Positions 10,444 to 46,188 of a stretch of DNA of 64,000 nt are shown one piece after another; within the stretch, counting starts at the first letter, position 1, and the number at the start of each line of letters is the position of its first letter. Below the pieces are notes generated by a model. The model saw only the letters and a program-made list of their open reading frames with translations, had not been told where the DNA came from and ran no database searches. Source of the stretch: an uncultured bacterium (GTDB lineage Bacteria > Chlamydiota > Chlamydiia > Chlamydiales > SM23-39); the NCBI GenBank assembly GCA_963716985.1, contig OY970323.1, positions 800,001 through 864,000 of the forward strand. The letters are read 5' to 3'. The position numbers were made by a program, and so were the translations under genes.

Positions 10444-11217
10444 ATGGCATATACAGTAAAAAAGTTAAGCGAACTTTCCGGAGTAACAGTCAGGACCCTC
10501 CATTTTTACGAAGAAGCCGCTCTTCTCAAGCCGGCTTATTATGGATCCAACGGGTATCGCTACTACGAAGAAAAGCAGCTTTTACAACTTCAGCAGATTC
10601 TCTTCTTCAAGGAACTGGGTTTTTCTCTGAAGCAAATCCAAAAGATTGTAGGGAAAAGCGACTTTGATCAGCTCGCTGCCCTCCATTCGCATAGAAAAGC
10701 CTTGAGCCGCGAGCGCGAGAAAATTGGAGTGTTACTGAAAACTATCGATAAGACAATCAAACATTTAAATGGAAAAAAGAAAATGAAAGACAAGGAAATG
10801 TTCGATGGGTTCAACATCACATTAGTAAAGGCAACGGAAGGCAGGTCCTATTCCGCAGCTGAAAAACTCGTTGCTCAAAGCGTTAAGCATCCGACCAAAG
10901 GTGCGCAAGATGTTGAGAAACGAGGCAAGGCCTATTATGACAATATCGCCAAAACAGCCCATGCGCTATTTGAAGAATTGGTTCGCTGCATTGAAAAAGG
11001 ACTCGATCCTGGAGCCGATGAAGTGCAAAAGATCGTGAAAAAACATCATGTATTCATGAAACAAACGCATGCAGTAACCAAAGATGTGTATGAGGCTATG
11101 GCTCAATTGTATGCGGAACATCCAGATTTCCGAAAACAGCTCGATCCATTTCATCCCAAATTGGCTGAATTTATGACAGCTGCGATGAAAGTTTTTGCCG
11201 ATCGGAAACTATCATAG
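10444..11217 (+). CDS. MerR-family regulator with TipAS-like C-terminal domain (TipA/Mta-like)
   Basis: YTVKKLSELSGVTVRTLHFYE...NGYRYY; C-terminal GLDPGADEVQ...LYAEHPDFRK. Confidence 0.9.
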   Translation: MAYTVKKLSELSGVTVRTLHFYEEAALLKPAYYGSNGYRYYEEKQLLQLQQILFFKELGFSLKQIQKIVGKSDFDQLAALHSHRKALSREREKIGVLLKTIDKTIKHLNGKKKMKDKEMFDGFNITLVKATEGRSYSAAEKLVAQSVKHPTKGAQDVEKRGKAYYDNIAKTAHALFEELVRCIEKGLDPGADEVQKIVKKHHVFMKQTHAVTKDVYEAMAQLYAEHPDFRKQLDPFHPKLAEFMTAAMKVFADRKLS

Positions 11218-11225
11218 TATTAACA

Positions 11226-11255
11226 CGACCTCTCTTCAGCGATGAGGGGAGGTCG
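11226..11255 (+). terminator. Hairpin after the MerR gene, probable terminator
   Basis: CGACCTCTCTTCA-GCGA-TGAGGGGAGGTCG. Confidence 0.5.
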
Positions 11256-11576
11256 AAAATCAATCATTTTCCAGCGTTCTTATTCAAGCGCATCATAACA
11301 TGTGGCTTACGCTCATGCGACGGAATAAATTCGCCAACAATATTCATCATGGAGTATTGGCTGTGGTCTTCCGAACGAACCTATCAGAATTAGGCTAAAG
11401 GACTTGGTTTCTTTAATTCATCCAAAAATTGTCAGCGTCGCCGTTGTACAATAATCGCACGCGTGTGCTATACTCATACAGTTTCAATCATTTATGCCCC
11501 TAAGAAAGAGGCGTTGATCATGAATGTGCTAATAATAGCAGATCAACAATGGTGATCGACTAAAACTAGGTAATTT

Positions 11577-43311: not shown

Positions 43312-44142
43312 TCAATCACAGCAAATATTTTGATCACTCACCCACTGGCGATTTTGAATCAGCAAATCGATTTGCTTGAGCACTTTCCTTGTGTTCCATT
43401 GGCCAGGAAGATTGCGCGCGCCTGTATAATGAAATAGCAGACAAGGGATCTGACGAGCTTTGCACGTATCTTGAACAGAACGAAGGGCGCCTTCACTATC
43501 ATCAAAAAAAACAATACTGCCGGGATGCAGTTGCAGAGTGTCGAGAAAGGCAGCCAAAACTGCCCCTTTTGGCTGCTGGTTAGCGCAAAGAATGCCTCTA
43601 TATAATCCAGGATAATTTTGGCGATACGATGACAGCGAATCAAACATTTGGTCCGAAAAATCATGGCTAAACGCAATTCCCATCTTCTCTAGCATTTGGA
43701 AGCGCCAGTCGGGCATATCGGAAATCACACCAAAAGCGCCCGTTTCCATGCTGGTGAGGGCGAAAACAAAATGTCCGCTATCTTTTAACTTTTGGACCAT
43801 CGCCGGCACTGTAGGCTCAATCAAAATGCGCGGCGCCTGGCTCAACATCAAACTGTAAATATCTTCCCATGTTTTCGTGTCGCACAGCTGAGGATGGGCG
43901 ATCCACAGCCGTAAACGAAACCACCACGGAAAATAATTGCCACGAGCAAAAACATCCGGTGAAGAGATAAGCGTGTCATCTACATCGAATAAAATAAGCG
44001 CGTTTGAAGGAATGCTTGGGATCCCTTCTTCGATAGAAGAGATCTCTTGTATGGGACAGGCGTCTTTTACTACATTACAATATGCAGGTTCGATAAATAA
44101 GACGTTGAGGCAGAGGAATAATGCAGTCCAGTTTCTGCGCAT
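43312..44142 (-). CDS. DUF2608-like HAD-superfamily protein, secreted
   Basis: LFDVDDTL, KG...FFDD motifs; signal peptide. Confidence 0.78.
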   Translation of the reverse strand: MRRNWTALFLCLNVLFIEPAYCNVVKDACPIQEISSIEEGIPSIPSNALILFDVDDTLISSPDVFARGNYFPWWFRLRLWIAHPQLCDTKTWEDIYSLMLSQAPRILIEPTVPAMVQKLKDSGHFVFALTSMETGAFGVISDMPDWRFQMLEKMGIAFSHDFSDQMFDSLSSYRQNYPGLYRGILCANQQPKGAVLAAFLDTLQLHPGSIVFFDDSEGALRSVQDTCKARQIPCLLFHYTGARNLPGQWNTRKVLKQIDLLIQNRQWVSDQNICCD

Positions 44143-44152
44143 CGATGTTTTC

Positions 44153-44812
44153 TTATTTTGTTTTAAAGTGTTCGAAATGTTCATTATGCATTTCTATATG
44201 AATATTCTGAGGTATGAGTGCCTTTTCAAGCTCTTTTTGCGTTTGTTCGCTGATTTTTAAGTTTTGTGCGATTTCCTTCCCTGCCTGTTGAAGTAACTGC
44301 TTGTATTTTATAATGATAGATTCAAATTTTACATCTTGTAAAAGCGGGCCTCCATCTCGATATATTTCAGCAATCAAATCCGTCCGTATATGGCTAGCCA
44401 TTCGGCGAAATAGTAATTTCAACGCATCAAATTGCACTTGGCCTGGATAACCGCAATTGGCGATAACCATGATTTTTGGTGGCATCTGACCAGGAATTCG
44501 ATGCGATATACTGCGATCTATAAAATTTTTTAAAAGCCCAGAGACATTATCTGCGTACAGGGGAGTCGCATAGATGATGAGATCACAATTCATGAAATTG
44601 ATTTTTTGCATGTCATCGCGAAAGACACACGCACCTGGTGTTTGAGTCCAACAAGTCAAGCATCCCACGCAGTGATGGATATTCATTTGCGAAAGCAAAA
44701 TATGTTCGGTTATGGCGCCTTGATTTTGAGCTCCTTTGAAAAATTCTTCGACCATCAGGTAAGTCGTGCTGCTTTTCCCTCGCGGACTGCCATTGATTGC
44801 AATGATTTTCAT
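44153..44812 (-). CDS. Flavodoxin-family / iron-sulfur flavoprotein
   Basis: INGSPR...ST, CVGCLTCW...C..RDD, ATPLY. Confidence 0.88.
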   Translation of the reverse strand: MKIIAINGSPRGKSSTTYLMVEEFFKGAQNQGAITEHILLSQMNIHHCVGCLTCWTQTPGACVFRDDMQKINFMNCDLIIYATPLYADNVSGLLKNFIDRSISHRIPGQMPPKIMVIANCGYPGQVQFDALKLLFRRMASHIRTDLIAEIYRDGGPLLQDVKFESIIIKYKQLLQQAGKEIAQNLKISEQTQKELEKALIPQNIHIEMHNEHFEHFKTK

Positions 44813-46188
44813 TTTTGCTCCCATCTTTTTTGACGACCCATTTCATCTTTGTGATGTTGTTCTTTGAGAGATTTTTCAAAAAACGAGATGGTTTTTTTCC
44901 AAGAATCTTGGCACGCATATCGATTTTCTGCCAGAGAACCCCCAAGTGCACACCAGATTTTCGCAACATGATGATAAAAGGTGGCGCTAGACTGCGGTAG
45001 GTAAGGAATGGTGATTCCATGACCTGCTTTGGGATAGTACAAATGTTCCCAAAAAATGGTGGAGTGATATTTTCGAAGGCGCTCTTCGATTTGGGAAGCA
45101 TAAAGCGCGGATGGCCACATTTGGTCGTCTCCGCCAGAAATGATCAAAAGAGACGCGCGAATTTTTTCGACAGGAATAGCGGCGGCATTAAAGGATTCTT
45201 TGTCTTTCATTCCTTCGAGAAATCCCGGCGTCTCATTGAATGGATGATCCGAATCATTGCCGATACCATCTAATGAAAGAGGAAGAGCTTCGTGAGCCGG
45301 GGGAGCGAGTGGCATTCCATGATAAACCCACGCATGGGAGTGAGCCGAGCCTCCCGGTGCTCCGTAAATAACGCTGCTAGGGACTGCTGCAACAATTGCC
45401 TGCACTGATTCAGGAAACCATGCGCCTAAAATCAAAGCCAATTCGCCGCCTCTCGATCCTCCGTAAATACCAACATGCGAGCTATCGAGATCAGGCTGAG
45501 ACTTCAACCATTGAAATGCCGTTTCAAAATATTCTAAAGGGATGTCTTGAAGAATCGGAGGAAGGCCCTCTACACCAAAATAACCAAGAGCTAATACTGC
45601 AAAACCATGTGCTGCCAAGAGTTGTGATTTACTTTCTCCAATACCGCCAGTCGATCCACTTAAAGTAATAATAACGGGAAGGGGTTTTTCAGAGGGTGGC
45701 AAAAATAAAATTCCAACCAATCCATTTTCTCGTACTGGAATCCTCTTTATTTCTGGAGACGTGCACAGACGAACGATCTTTTTGGATGCAATTTCTTGCT
45801 TGCTGCGCAAAACTTTCAACTCTATGGAAAACTGTTCTTTTTTTGTTGTGAAAGACGCCGTTGGATTTGATTCAGATTGCATGGACCAAAGCAATCCCAT
45901 GGGATCAATTCCGGAATAGGTCCCTTCAAGAGGTGATTGAACAGAAAGATTGACGATACCGTTTTTGTCAGACTGAAAGGAAGCTCTAGAACCCCAGTGG
46001 ATCTGTTGGTCATCGACGGCTTCGGCTTGAATCGAAACGATCTCGTCGGGAGCTAAATTTTTCACTACAACAGTCGTATCTTGATCGAAAAGAGACACTT
46101 CGGGAGAGATTTCGATAGATGCGGAGTGAATTGGGGAAATAGGCTGAACGGCTAACAATACGCATGTCGCCAACATCGAAAAAAGCAT
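44809..46188 (-). CDS. Acyl-CoA thioester hydrolase / BAAT family protein
   Basis: GTYSGIDPMGLLWSM, GGSRGGE, DDQMWPS, YPKAGH. Confidence 0.9.
   Translation of the reverse strand: MLFSMLATCVLLAVQPISPIHSASIEISPEVSLFDQDTTVVVKNLAPDEIVSIQAEAVDDQQIHWGSRASFQSDKNGIVNLSVQSPLEGTYSGIDPMGLLWSMQSESNPTASFTTKKEQFSIELKVLRSKQEIASKKIVRLCTSPEIKRIPVRENGLVGILFLPPSEKPLPVIITLSGSTGGIGESKSQLLAAHGFAVLALGYFGVEGLPPILQDIPLEYFETAFQWLKSQPDLDSSHVGIYGGSRGGELALILGAWFPESVQAIVAAVPSSVIYGAPGGSAHSHAWVYHGMPLAPPAHEALPLSLDGIGNDSDHPFNETPGFLEGMKDKESFNAAAIPVEKIRASLLIISGGDDQMWPSALYASQIEERLRKYHSTIFWEHLYYPKAGHGITIPYLPQSSATFYHHVAKIWCALGGSLAENRYACQDSWKKTISFFEKSLKEQHHKDEMGRQKRWEQK

Follow-up and report, generated by a model that had tools for sequence, protein, structure and literature searches.

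The locus described here raises the question of whether a dense run of resistance-type genes in an uncultured chlamydia is a genuine chemical-defence cluster and whether it is an integron-like collection, as an earlier note on this DNA had proposed. The island occupies about 36 kb (positions 10444-46188) of the window, the 64,000-nt stretch of DNA that was analysed, and ORF listing and Pfam give it 35 ORFs, 28 on the minus strand and seven on the plus strand (Table 1). About 30 defence-type genes had been claimed; the cluster itself stands, with Pfam families (acetyltransferase, hydrolase, kinase, adenylyltransferase, reductase, efflux, ABC-F and rRNA methylase) for 25 of the 35. Although the island makes up 1.73% of the genome, it contains five of the genome's 13 PF00583 (GNAT) matches (binomial P=1.8e-6), five of its 10 PF12697 (Abhydrolase_6) matches (P=3.6e-7) and both of its TipAS matches. 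This local concentration is non-random and far above chance. The predominance of the minus strand and the near-touching genes reported earlier were likewise evident: at 15 of the 18 junctions in the minus-strand string from 46188 to 26323, neighbouring genes overlap or lie 1-27 nt apart. The BAAT-type, FMN reductase and DUF2608 genes overlap by 16 and 32 nt, the SDR start and the ANT(6) stop overlap as ATGA, and the 26323 hydrolase and the 27370 GNAT are separated by 6 nt. About eleven densely packed strings resemble transcription units.

Table 1 Features of the island and its borders (positions in the window; "vs" gives a score against the profile cut-off)
Feature	Position	Strand	Evidence
GNAT paralogue, left bracket of phage remnant and island	6079-6567	+	83% identical to 46416-46904
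MerR-type promoter A	10365-10396	+	-35 TTGACC 10365-10370, -10 TATTAT 10391-10396, 20-nt spacer
Promoter A central dyad	10373-10384	+	inside 20-nt spacer
TipA-class regulator A (MerR HTH + TipAS)	10444-11217	+	TipAS 73.9 bits, MerR_1 66 bits
ORF without family, hydrophobic N-terminus (hydropathy)	11577-12365	+	Pfam, NCBIfam: no match
Nucleoside 2-deoxyribosyltransferase-like	12372-12881	+	PF05014 59.8 bits; 90% identical paralogue elsewhere in genome
Aldo-keto reductase (AKR)	12845-13915	+	PF00248 249.3 bits, match from residue 42; real start probably further downstream
GNAT (Acetyltransf_8), distantly AAC(6')-like	13900-14442	-	Pfam 58 bits; NF012165 42.8 vs 280
Alpha/beta hydrolase, kin of macrolide esterases EstT/EstX	14677-15591	-	NF052610 212.8 vs 420; solved structures EstX E=2e-44, EstT E=2.5e-43
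Membrane-anchored alpha/beta hydrolase, TPR tail	15588-17579	-	Pfam; paralogue of 39564 (46% identity over 338 residues)
GNAT	17588-18094	-	PF00583 55.7 bits
ORF without family	18063-18503	-	Glyoxalase E=0.11 only
ABC-2 permease	18460-19272	-	Pfam
DrrA-like ATPase	19259-20023	-	Pfam; TIGR01188 207.8 vs 312
ABC-F, ribosomal-protection-like	20207-21790	-	NF000355 411.9 vs 380, passed
APH-fold/choline-kinase-like kinase	22066-23151	+	PF01636 65.3 bits; closest solved relatives choline kinases (4R77, E=1.6e-13)
ORF without Pfam family	23214-24260	+	
PAF-acetylhydrolase/PETase-like alpha/beta hydrolase	24257-25261	-	Pfam
P-loop protein	25407-26300	+	26-residue match around P-loop, 21.4 bits vs 22
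PAF-AH/PETase-like hydrolase	26323-27363	-	Pfam
GNAT (Acetyltransf_9)	27370-28206	-	Pfam
SpoU-type RNA 2'-O-methyltransferase + extra C-terminal domain	28403-29635	-	PF00588 127.1 bits; RlmB 114 vs 160; NshR/TsnR 83 vs 425
Class II aminoacyl-tRNA-synthetase-like catalytic core	29626-30576	-	outside every Pfam family
GNAT, N-terminal extension	30584-31411	-	Pfam
MFS transporter	31419-32660	-	PF07690 147.1 bits; Tet(A/B/C) 136.8 vs 475
AAC(6')-like GNAT	32670-33122	-	NF043067 134.3 vs 140; AAC(6')-Iy (1S3Z) E=1.2e-22
SDR	33134-33838	-	Pfam; 78% identical paralogue 7 kb left of window
ANT(6)-like nucleotidyltransferase	33835-34665	-	PF04439 189.6 bits; AadS 151.5 vs 450
S9 prolyl-oligopeptidase-type hydrolase	34667-36574	-	Pfam; heads 8-gene string
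Beta-lactamase-fold protein 2, hydrophobic C-terminal part	36747-38648	-	PF00144 191.3 bits
VOC/glyoxalase-fold protein	38654-39046	-	Pfam 59.8 bits
DUF6483-family all-helical protein	39074-39562	-	PF20092 matched by 24 of 39 aligned homologues
Membrane-anchored alpha/beta hydrolase	39564-40577	-	Pfam
Beta-lactamase-fold protein 1 (bla1) + DUF3471	40598-42403	-	PF00144 227.1 bits
TipA-class regulator B	42426-43196	-	TipAS 57.7 bits, MerR_1 53.1 bits
MerR-type promoter B	43222-43252	-	-35-like TTGTAG, 19-nt spacer, -10 TATTCT
Promoter B dyad TTACGTAA	43240-43233	-	inside 19-nt spacer
DUF2608	43312-44184	-	Pfam
FMN reductase	44153-44824	-	Pfam
BAAT/acyl-CoA-thioesterase-like	44809-46188	-	Pfam
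GNAT paralogue, right border	46416-46904	+	pair with 6079-6567

Profile searches bore out the five GNATs (13900, 17588, 27370, 30584 and 32670), the ANT(6)-like enzyme, the APH-like kinase, the two beta-lactamase-fold proteins, and the MFS transporter, ABC-2 permease and ATPase, ABC-F, SpoU methylase, AKR, SDR and FMN reductase. Five alpha/beta hydrolases had been listed; Pfam finds seven (14677, 15588, 24257, 26323, 39564, the S9-type 34667 and the BAAT-type 44809). Of two supposed AAC(6')-like GNATs, 32670 comes close to its profile cut-off and 13900 falls far below. One of two proposed VOC proteins, 38654, holds; the other, 18063, was not confirmed, nor was 25407 as a CPT-like kinase, each having a match below significance or cut-off (Table 1) and no solved relative found. 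The deoxyribosyltransferase-like gene, DUF2608, the DUF6483 protein (AF2 model pLDDT 96.2; weak, TPR-like fold matches) and the aminoacyl-tRNA-synthetase-like 29626 had been overlooked. None of the 1334 homologues of the last carries a Pfam domain, and its AF2 model (pLDDT 85.9) best matches HisRS cores (Foldseek E=8e-12, TM 0.58). For 23214, the Atlas provides a lead only, to a class I SAM methyltransferase.

The reading of these as resistance genes fared less well. Only one of the 35 proteins, the ABC-F, passed a curated NCBIfam cut-off, and the resistance profiles for EstT-like (213 vs 420), ANT(6) (152 vs 450), Tet-MFS (137 vs 475), TsnR (83 vs 425) and class C beta-lactamase (114 vs 415; 92 for beta-lactamase-fold protein 2) were not reached. 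The ANT(6)-like protein shares no more than 32% identity with plasmid-borne ANT(6). The folds of such resistance-type proteins also work in ordinary metabolism. Because the ABC-F alone passes a resistance-family cut-off, the substrates of the island's enzymes are unproven.

No integron was found. The sole tyrosine recombinase nearby, at 4412-5389, has a TIGR02249 score of 29.6 against 265, so that the absence of IntI noted earlier stands, and so does that of attC: there is no attC-like motif pair in the 10 longer intergenic regions, and the whole island has two against 8.0 +/- 4.4 in shuffles. The 1-27 nt spacing of the genes also speaks against an integron. The integron-like mechanism itself found no support in any recombinase, recombination site or junction motif. 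The placing of the island between phage remnants is right on the left (portal, terminase, methylase and DUF1064); on the right lie IS elements and tRNA-Met attachment-site remnants. Two GNAT paralogues bracket the left remnant and the island, with a 300-nt direct repeat at 6032 and 46369. Tetranucleotide deviation lies at the 88th-95th percentile, and GC3 and codon fit are inside the genome's range, the VOC gene excepted (codon fit z=-3.3); nothing in the composition points to a recent foreign source.

Gene order, which the earlier note had proposed to compare, is not fixed. The only same-genus genome compared (G001, 99% complete) lacks TipAS regulators and, for the queries used, orthologues of the ABC-F, SpoU-fusion, bla1, EstT-like, ANT(6) or aminoacyl-tRNA-synthetase-like genes; it does have a homologue of beta-lactamase-fold protein 2 (71% identity). 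The comparison also covered three metagenome contigs from close relatives (11.8, 2.5 and 3.2 kb), with 83-95% protein identity. One (L063), colinear at 88-90% nucleotide identity, lacks the VOC gene (420 nt missing) and has two extra genes; another (L065) lacks the MFS gene. Mis-assembly of the contigs could produce such differences, and the three concur with one another at the methyltransferase slot only; at that slot, all three replace SpoU by another methyltransferase-like gene, which matches nothing in the island's genome. These differences are gene-sized gains and losses and one replacement within an otherwise colinear operon, and the island is not a fixed block passed on vertically.

Small modules of the island recur in other chlamydial families: regulator B followed by two bla genes and DUF6483 (68% identity) in G016, regulator B followed by a hydrolase and, further on, the ABC pair in G166, ABC-F followed by regulator A in G028, SpoU-fusion followed by GNAT (54% identity to 30584) in G008, and ANT(6) with GNAT and SDR in L033. 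The permease and ATPase are found again in G166 (72%/65% identity) and G008 (56%/45%), and outside this genome homologues of the 13900 GNAT (28-61% identity) adjoin ANT(6), ABC-F or TipAS genes. ABC-F orthologues (49-54% identity) occur in seven of 40 relatives and full-length SpoU-fusion homologues in two of 40; of 24 family genomes, 19 have a bla1 match at E<=0.001, and in 10 of these the homologue is near-full-length (35-57% identity).

Both TipAS-MerR regulators (10444 and 42426) and their conserved promoters had escaped the earlier note. Regulator A matches SkgA (7CLA) over its full length (E=3e-39) and belongs to a set of >120 clusters at >=75% identity, the five named clusters all being chlamydial; regulator B matches Lmo0526 (3QAO, E=4e-21) and has orthologues in G016, G274 and G166 (64-67% identity). 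The promoter A element lies upstream of all nine regulator A orthologues from other genera, with a conserved leader before the start codon, and promoter B upstream of all four regulator B orthologues; both elements are conserved between chlamydial genera. PMC1526738 gives as the MerR signature a palindrome within a spacer of 19-20 bp. Weight-matrix scanning found each operator once in the 2.07-Mb genome; each regulator therefore probably drives its own unit only. The two regulators can account for about 10 of the 35 genes at most, a ceiling that rises to 20 if read-through is allowed. Candidate promoters elsewhere include a sigma-70-like one at 36629-36600 (11/12 matches), ahead of the S9-hydrolase string, and another separate one at 20202-20173.

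Of 300 Chlamydiota genomes, 77 carry TipAS regulators, and these represent 58 of 165 genera; all 29 genomes of one family are without them. A paired test set beforehand covered 13 fresh genomes. Of the 120 ORFs lying no more than 5 kb from a TipAS gene, 13 belonged to island-like Pfam classes, as did two of 114 ORFs at control loci, with nine pairs up, one down and three ties (sign test P=0.011). Sequence homologues of the island's own proteins were not in excess at these 13 loci (3 vs 2, P=0.5). The P values are too strong, since related genomes are not independent. The 13 loci had about one island-like gene apiece and no island, and the richness seen at seven of seven other TipAS loci came from loci preselected for two TipAS genes or known orthologues. 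The association elsewhere is thus weak.

As described in PMC7762955 for TipAL, Mta and SkgA, ligand binding to TipAS lifts autoinhibition and the regulator untwists an over-long promoter. By analogy, a small molecule may bind the TipAS domain here to the same effect. Regulator A would then switch on its own gene and possibly three downstream genes, and regulator B its own and the next five (gaps of 1-27 nt), a six-gene hydrolase operon with a beta-lactamase-fold hydrolase, an alpha/beta hydrolase, DUF6483, VOC and a second beta-lactamase-fold protein; the remaining strings are apparently under promoters of their own. Crude hydropathy gives ten proteins signal- or anchor-like N-termini, eight being the hydrolases and the APH-fold kinase, and these would act outside the cytoplasm. 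The GNATs, ANT(6)-like enzyme, SDR and AKR would modify compounds intracellularly, MFS and ABC-2 would export them, and ribosome protection would fall to ABC-F and the SpoU methylase. Gene gain and loss in the cluster probably come from ordinary recombination whose breakpoints fall at gene ends or just within them, and not from integron chemistry.

In summary, the chemical-defence cluster is real and is not an integron, its substrates being putative. That it protects a host is pure speculation. We somewhat favour the view that it is an accessory xenobiotic/antibiotic-defence cluster of an environmental (non-Chlamydiaceae) chlamydia, put together from modules of one to six genes out of a pool common to chlamydiae. 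The sole concrete mechanistic handle on the island comes from its pair of TipA-class regulators with their conserved promoters.

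The contig that holds the window is a single sequence of 2,067,739 bases with 44.4% G+C, of which the window forms bases 800,001-864,000. Its nearest homologues carry the names of Rhabdochlamydiaceae, Parachlamydiales, Parachlamydiaceae and Chlamydiia MAGs. The ORF listing places 35 ORFs in the island (10444-46188), 28 of them on the minus strand, and Pfam searches assigned 25 of the 35 to small-molecule-modifying, efflux or target-protection families. Although the island makes up just 1.73% of the genome (the whole contig), it has 5 of the 13 PF00583 matches (binomial P=1.8e-6; 7 of 13 when the two bracketing GNATs are included), 5 of the 10 PF12697 matches (binomial P=3.6e-7) and both TipAS genes. 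The Pfam assignments and this non-chance concentration confirmed, with corrections, the view of the earlier note that the region is a collection of chemical-defence-type genes. All five GNATs that it had counted were recovered, as were the two beta-lactamase-fold hydrolases, the ANT(6)-like enzyme, the MFS transporter, the ABC exporter, and the ABC-F, SpoU, AKR and SDR proteins. Alpha/beta hydrolases were present but number seven rather than the five proposed, and one of two proposed VOC proteins held; neither the second nor a 'CPT-like' kinase found support in family and solved-structure searches. The APH-like kinase has the fold by Pfam, and its closest solved structures are choline kinases. 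New to the inventory are regulators A and B (both TipA-class MerR proteins), a nucleoside-deoxyribosyltransferase-like gene, a DUF2608 gene and a DUF6483 protein, whose predicted model is confident yet gave no fold match at E<=0.001. The strand bias and tight packing reported before were also borne out: in the minus-strand string running from 46188 to 26323, neighbouring genes overlap or lie 1-27 nt apart at 15 of 18 junctions, and the other three gaps measure 115, 172 and 196 nt.

Features of the island, its surroundings and related loci (window positions unless marked otherwise; bla1 and bla2, beta-lactamase-fold genes)
Feature	Position	Strand	Basis or remark
GNATs			five in island (Pfam)
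Alpha/beta-fold hydrolases			seven in island, S9-type and BAAT-type included (Pfam)
Beta-lactamase-fold proteins; VOC protein			two; one; in island (Pfam)
ANT(6)-type nucleotidyltransferase; APH-fold kinase			one each in island (Pfam)
AKR; SDR; FMN reductase			one each in island (Pfam)
MFS transporter; ABC-2 permease with its ATPase			in island (Pfam)
ABC-F protein; SpoU methyltransferase			one each in island (Pfam)
MerR-type promoter A	10365-10396	+	read in window, orthologue conservation
Regulator A leader	10397-10446	+	
Regulator A	10444-11217	+	
Cysteine-rich ORF	14455-14668	-	
EstT-like gene	14677-15591	-	
SpoU-fusion gene	28403-29635	-	
aaRS-like gene	29626-30576	-	
MFS gene	31419-32660	-	
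ANT(6) gene	33835-34665	-	
bla2	36747-38648	-	
VOC gene	38654-39046	-	
DUF6483 gene	39074-39562	-	
bla1	40598-42403	-	
Regulator B	42426-43196	-	
MerR-type promoter B	43252-43222	-	read in window, orthologue conservation
Beta-lactamase-fold fragment, left flank	787-1350	+	
Beta-lactamase-fold fragment, right flank	49754-50656	-	
Tyrosine recombinase gene	4412-5389		
300-nt direct repeat	6032 and 46369		
AAA_14/DUF4143 ATPase gene	57587-58729	+	
tRNA-Met 3'-part copies, window	58779-58823, 63226-63270		fragments
tRNA-Met 3'-part copies, genome	880376-880442, 940713-940780		inside ARAGORN-called tRNA-Met genes
Phage-defence-type genes	genome 866-872 kb (L031:2042-7140)		
Second integrase	genome 877.7-878.9 kb		
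PKS-NRPS cluster	genome 888.5-904 kb (L032)		
APH-GNAT fusion gene, G194	L052:7857-9227	-	
Module in G016			regulator B, bla, bla, DUF6483, SDR, in this order
Module in G166			regulator B, alpha/beta hydrolase, ..., ABC ATPase and permease (72%, 65% identity), SDR
Module in G028			ABC-F, then directly regulator A (51%, 76% identity)
Module in G008			SpoU-fusion, then GNAT 30584 (55%, 54% identity)
Module in L033			ANT(6) adjoining an SDR and a GNAT 61% identical to GNAT 13900

Two more beta-lactamase-fold fragments lie in the flanks, one without its N-terminal part and with two TGA stops when read across, the other a short N-terminal piece; four of the five beta-lactamase-fold loci of the genome fall in the window.

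Searches with curated resistance models put the ABC-F protein alone among the 35 above a cut-off (NF000355, 411.9 versus 380). It comprises two ABC_tran stretches and ABC_tran_Xtn (Pfam), lies below the cut-off of every specific ARE subfamily model and, among solved structures, is equally close to the housekeeping EttA (245.7 bits) and to VmlR (238.3 bits). The AAC(6')-like GNAT fell narrowly short of NF043067 (AAC(6')-I group E; 134.3 versus 140, with 137 of 140 profile positions aligned). The ANT(6)-like protein, at most 32% identical to plasmid-borne forms, matched PF04439 strongly (189.6 versus a cut-off of 22) and stayed under the NCBIfam equivalogs (151.5 versus 450 and 123 versus 420). 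The EstT-like esterase was likewise under the curated cut-offs (212.8 versus 420, 184.8 versus 450) and has clear homology to the solved EstX and EstT (E=2e-44). Scores of 92.2 and 114.3 against the class C model NF033085 (cut-off 415) leave the beta-lactamase-fold proteins with the general fold PF00144 only. The SpoU protein reached 83.1 on the NshR/TsnR model NF000477 (cut-off 425) and a higher score, still under the cut-off, on the RlmB model (114.3 versus 160), and the MFS protein 136.8 on the tetracycline-efflux model NF012174 (cut-off 475). Resistance-type genes, as the earlier note had called them, are thus recognizable as homologues at the family level, whereas at curated cut-offs the designation holds for ABC-F alone (1 of 35). 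The likeness to EstT/EstX, AAC(6')-I, ANT(6), ARE-type ABC-F and TsnR/AviRb-type SpoU proteins is one of fold and family, and the island members other than ABC-F differ from these determinants in lying under the curated cut-offs.

That 34 of the 35 proteins lie under resistance cut-offs would also fit a host-interaction or lipid/metabolite-processing island rather than drug defence, in which exported hydrolases (the PAF-AH-like, BAAT thioesterase-like, S9 and beta-lactamase-fold esterase proteins), the choline-kinase-like protein with its methyltransferase-like partner and DUF2608 would act on host lipids, peptides or cell-wall material, and the GNATs on endogenous amines. The kinship of the 'APH' kinase with choline kinases, the presence of two PAF-AH/PETase-like proteins and one BAAT-like protein (Pfam), signal- or anchor-like N-termini in 10 of the 35 proteins (crude hydropathy) and the placement of the organism, by homologue names, among intracellular-type chlamydiae all agree with it. 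However, it leaves unexplained the ABC-F, SpoU, ANT(6)-/AAC(6')-type and EstT/EstX-like proteins (E=2e-44 for the last), the MFS and DrrA-like exporters and the two TipA-class regulators together, a set typical of xenobiotic defence, and we consider it rather unlikely.

Several island proteins have unusual architectures. The aaRS-like gene, placed between a GNAT gene and the RNA methyltransferase gene, encodes 316 aa with the fold of a class II histidyl-tRNA synthetase catalytic core (predicted model, pLDDT 85.9), standing alone without an anticodon-binding domain; its family has 1334 homologues but no Pfam model, and is about 50% identical across Chlamydiota, cyanobacteria (Nostoc records) and Chloroflexi. 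The SpoU methyltransferase bears an extra C-terminal domain (residues ~300-400) weakly like the C-terminal regulatory part of the reductase component of p-hydroxyphenylacetate hydroxylase (E=0.0035). A cysteine-rich ORF of 71 codons occupies the 234-nt gap between the EstT-like esterase and the GNAT gene at 13900. In three proteins of close and distant relatives (P0243, P0261 and P0294; 478-484 aa), a GNAT unrelated to GNAT 13900 precedes the EstT-like esterase in the same chain; such fusions hint that the esterase and the acetyltransferase may share one substrate.

Regulators A and B both exceeded the Pfam cut-offs for MerR_1 and TipAS, and they aligned over their full length with Caulobacter SkgA (regulator A, E=3e-39) and Listeria Lmo0526 (regulator B, E=4e-21). 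With these two proteins, TipAL/TipAS of Streptomyces lividans and Mta of Bacillus subtilis they share the MerR HTH, the coiled coil and the TipAS domain. Signals for an internal start that would yield a short TipAS form were not convincing: regulator B has no internal Met where it could begin, and regulator A shows only weak signals there. Comparison of the DNA upstream of regulator orthologues from other genera and families revealed, at nine of nine regulator A loci, TTGACC, a 20-nt spacer whose centre is an ACGT-rich dyad, a -10 box of TATTAT or TAGAAT and then a conserved leader. At four of four regulator B loci, TTGTAG is followed by a 19-nt spacer centred on TTACGTAA and by a TATTCT-type -10 box. 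PMC1526738 gives a palindrome in an over-long spacer as the MerR-family signature, and PMC7762955 describes TipA-class proteins as activated by drugs and autoregulated; the regulators' own promoters, with over-long spacer and central dyad, match that autoregulated design. Unlike the members just named, they occur in an intracellular-type chlamydia, and regulator B is no solitary gene but the first of a hydrolase operon of several genes. A literature search on chlamydiae returned no paper about regulators of the TipA class or clusters of detoxification genes; in PMC4652624, MerR is mentioned for a mercury operon on a Simkania plasmid.

Weight matrices built from the nine and four sites found each operator once in the genome, the next-best scores being 14 versus 59 and 14 versus 50. 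Since each operator is unique, each regulator most probably governs just the unit it heads; an island-wide TipA regulon was ruled out by the same single-copy result. The regulator A unit would comprise the regulator itself and perhaps the three plus-strand genes behind it, and the regulator B unit the regulator and the next five genes (gaps of 22, 20, 1, 27 and 5 nt). The eight genes from the S9 gene onward are probably a separate unit, because a good sigma-70-type site, matching at 11 of 12 positions, lies in the 172-nt gap ahead of S9. In general scans for sigma-70 promoters and for terminators, the real sequence had no more sites than its shuffles. Regulator A is unusually conserved, with more than 120 clusters at least 75% identical (the five named ones all chlamydial); orthologues of other island proteins stand at about 40-70% identity. 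Its 5' leader is near-invariant across genera (loci L039, L050, L052, L053 and L057-L060). In the predicted fold of 17 pairs, upstream bases would pair with the Shine-Dalgarno and start-codon region; a compensatory change was seen in one of the 17 pairs, the sequences being too alike for covariation.

Across the phylum, TipAS domains were found in 77 of 300 sampled Chlamydiota genomes and in 58 of 165 genera, and in none of 29 genomes of one chlamydial family, perhaps the Chlamydiaceae. At seven TipAS loci there seemed to be many genes for GNATs, APH proteins, hydrolases, exporters, VanX-type proteins, FAD-monooxygenases and the like; this was a biased set, picked for two TipAS genes or known orthologues. 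In a paired test fixed beforehand, 13 uninspected genomes each contributed their TipAS locus and, as control, a locus of the same contig lying 100 kb upstream. Island proteins had no excess of sequence homologues at the TipAS loci (3 versus 2, P=0.5). By Pfam classes within 5 kb, 13 of 120 ORFs at TipAS loci and 2 of 114 at controls were island-like, with nine pairs up, one down and three ties (sign test P=0.011); the genomes are related rather than independent, so both P values overstate the significance. Chlamydial TipA-class regulators thus usually lie in accessory DNA beside about one island-like gene; among the loci examined, an accumulation of 36 kb as found here is an exception. The idea that TipAS anchors large detoxification islands across Chlamydiae was weakened by the paired sample, with its roughly one island-like gene per locus. 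In G194, a genome of another chlamydial family, an APH-GNAT fusion gene adjoins the regulator A orthologue; the domain pair recalls bifunctional aminoglycoside-modifying enzymes.

The same-genus genome G001 (1.5 Mb, 99% complete) was searched with proteins, as blastn of the island gave two pieces of 69-71% identity and a blank tells little at such divergence. It has no TipAS match and no orthologue of the queries used (bla1, ABC-F, SpoU-fusion, EstT-like, ANT(6) and aaRS-like), and it carries a homologue of bla2 at 71% identity. G001 is colinear with positions 763-785.5 kb of the present genome (50-86% protein identity), after which its gene order jumps to what is the 1,490-kb region of the present genome. 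The break at ~785.6 kb means that the variable zone, which spans about 785.6 kb to past 904 kb, begins ~25 kb left of the island; as synteny ends at a rearrangement, the borders of the island are not definable by this comparison. Other relatives hold individual parts. For bla1, 19 of 24 family genomes gave matches at E<=0.001, ten with a near-full-length homologue of 35-57% identity; ABC-F orthologues (49-54% identity) were found in 7 of 40 relatives across several families, SpoU-fusion homologues in 2 of 40, and ANT(6), EstT-like and aaRS-like orthologues in none of five genomes. The nearest copies of ANT(6), 44-50% identical, come from three MAGs, one of Parachlamydiales, one of Verrucomicrobiota and one unclassified. 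Short modules of the island recur in other chlamydial genomes (see the table). To judge from these comparisons, the island is not a conserved block.

Gene turnover was visible among closer relatives, three contigs retrieved by a metagenome scan with the aaRS-like protein. One of them, L063, matches the window colinearly from 39341 to 29627 (88-90% nucleotide identity) but differs in three respects. It lacks the 420 nt in which the VOC gene and its ribosome-binding site lie, leaving a DUF6483-bla2 spacing of 12 nt; it has two additional genes (GNAT and NAD-epimerase-like) between the SDR and AAC(6')-like genes, with gaps of 1-4 nt; and after the aaRS-like gene it has a class I methyltransferase-like ORF in place of SpoU. 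A second contig, L065, lacks the MFS gene. The methyltransferase-like gene is common to all three contigs, 90-95% identical among them, and had no blastn or tblastx match anywhere in the present genome. Short metagenome contigs with 0-2 differences from the window came from soil, peat and freshwater in four studies, and two near-identical pieces span the two junctions of the VOC gene; one of the runs concerned may be that from which the window itself derives. Those listed from four DNA runs were 191-1195 nt long, too short for gene order. A gene order fixed in the clade, which the earlier note had set against its own reading, was not found: G001 lacks the hallmark genes and the three contigs differ gene by gene.

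Differences of this size (the VOC gene, the two inserted genes, the MFS gene and the methyltransferase swap), together with the deviant codon use of the VOC gene (z=-3.3), could point to a true cassette system of a new kind, inserting and removing single promoterless genes site-specifically at operon junctions. We regard this as most improbable: no common motif or repeat was found at the three junction pairs read, Pfam revealed no recombinase gene inside the island, the window has no inverted repeat of at least 40 nt, and the terminal codons of the genes flanking the junctions differ too, as in ordinary recombination between diverged copies; moreover, the pattern comes from three contigs only. 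An integron of the known type fares no better, and the absence of attC and IntI noted earlier was upheld. The sole nearby tyrosine recombinase scored 29.6 against TIGR02249 (cut-off 265) and 20.6 against NF011946 (cut-off 435), and attC-like R''...R' motif pairs were absent from the 10 longer intergenic regions and numbered two in the whole island versus 8.0 +/- 4.4 in shuffles. As attC sites are usually roughly 60-140 nt long, most gaps of the island (1-27 nt) are too short for one and therefore leave no room for a recombination site. The proposal of an integron-like collection built by some other mechanism hence stands as to its non-integron nature and its gene-by-gene variation, while the search for the mechanism yielded no recombinase or junction motif. 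Like integrons, including sedentary chromosomal ones, the island strings together accessory genes that are unrelated, mostly point one way and look promoterless, and close relatives differ in it gene by gene; it differs in having neither IntI nor attC-like sites and in consisting of several strings with their own promoters and regulators.

A further reading is that the island arrived whole as cargo of one decayed integrative element or prophage, the phage remnants, the integrase at 4412-5389 and a pair of 83%-identical GNATs marking its ends. Directly to the left lie portal, terminase, methylase, DUF1064 and tyrosine recombinase genes (the last 5 kb away), and a 300-nt direct repeat encloses phage genes and island together, with the two GNAT copies. 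To the right, four copies of a tRNA-Met 3' part and a second integrase suggest tandem integrative elements at tRNA-Met; the G001 synteny break would fit as well. However, the island borders (10.4 and 46.2 kb) have no attachment-site copy, all four lying at or beyond window position ~58785, and the composition is within the genome's range, with a tetranucleotide deviation at the 88th-95th percentile, per-gene GC3 z of -1.9 to +0.9 and codon fit within 2 s.d. for every gene but VOC. The phyletic patterns of bla1, ABC-F, SpoU-fusion and the ANT(6), EstT-like and aaRS-like genes differ, modules occur in other contexts elsewhere, and megablast against 72,556 plasmid records gave no match to island DNA. 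We find arrival as a single element very unlikely. A tRNA-targeting integrative island was rejected, with the tRNA-Met remnants away from the borders and the composition native-like, and a recent foreign origin was unsupported by the tetranucleotide, GC3 and codon-fit profiles and by the plasmid search. AbaR and SGI1 are multidrug-resistance genomic islands of pathogens; the present island resembles them in having tens of kb of drug-modifying and efflux genes beside mobile-element remains, but its genes are only distant kin of clinical determinants, it has no internal transposon or integron scaffold and its composition is native-like.

Known variable loci of chlamydiae include the plasticity zone of the Chlamydiaceae and the tet(C) island of Chlamydia suis, which are likewise hypervariable chromosomal zones with accessory genes. 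Cumulative skew places the origin at ~100 kb and the terminus at ~1,200 kb, the island lying at 810-846 kb, which rules out a terminus-linked plasticity zone; the island also differs from that of the Chlamydiaceae in carrying detoxification-type genes rather than toxins, MACPF proteins and tryptophan genes. To its right, the AAA_14/DUF4143 ATPase is 98.4% identical to its counterpart in G001 (C25), and the syntenic core proteins of the two genomes are mostly 65-86% identical, which suggests that this putatively mobile gene was recently exchanged. Beyond the window lie phage-defence-type genes, namely a TOTE-type archaeo-eukaryotic primase-helicase-DUF559 protein and an AAA_21/RloB pair.

Further right, 42 kb from the island, a hybrid cluster of PKS-NRPS type encodes a KS-DH-KR-ACP-C-A-PCP protein of 3373 residues, a second KS-containing protein (KS-ACP), an adenylating enzyme and an exporter of the ABC-2 type; the island could be the tailoring and self-resistance set for its product. 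Genes for kinases, methyltransferase-like proteins, SDRs, AKRs, GNATs, esterases and exporters are common among tailoring and immunity genes, and the island has genes of these types. Yet the DNA between the two regions holds IS elements, remnants of integrative elements and phage-defence genes, no core biosynthetic gene lies in the island, and the 20-kb stretches examined around its modules in other genomes hold no such cluster, which makes this proposal barely credible.

A bolder possibility is that environmental chlamydiae possess an exchangeable defence locus, in which single promoterless genes would be swapped at operon junctions by a non-integron route, partly switched by a conserved TipA-class sensor with its own promoter and leader, and whose payload might shield the eukaryotic host cell as well. 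As a whole it is quite improbable.

From what is known of the families, binding of a ligand to TipAS would switch on the promoter of the regulator concerned; those hydrolases whose N-termini look like signals or anchors (crude hydropathy) would work outside the cytoplasm; acetyl-, adenylyl- and phosphotransferases and reductases would act inside the cell; the MFS and ABC-2 proteins would export; and ABC-F and SpoU would act at the ribosome.

Obligate intracellular bacteria are usually viewed as shielded from environmental antibiotics and as losing such genes. Here, a 2.07-Mb chlamydial genome devotes 1.7% of its DNA to them and retains two antibiotic-sensor-type regulators whose promoters are conserved across genera, and sensors of this class occur in a quarter of the Chlamydiota sampled. 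Promoters A and B provide a simple entry point into chlamydial gene regulation, and the gene-sized differences between relatives are a clean natural case of operons gaining and losing genes one at a time with no integron machinery. Provided that the genes are active, they would represent a reservoir of highly divergent drug-modifying enzymes and would imply real chemical pressure within protist or invertebrate hosts.
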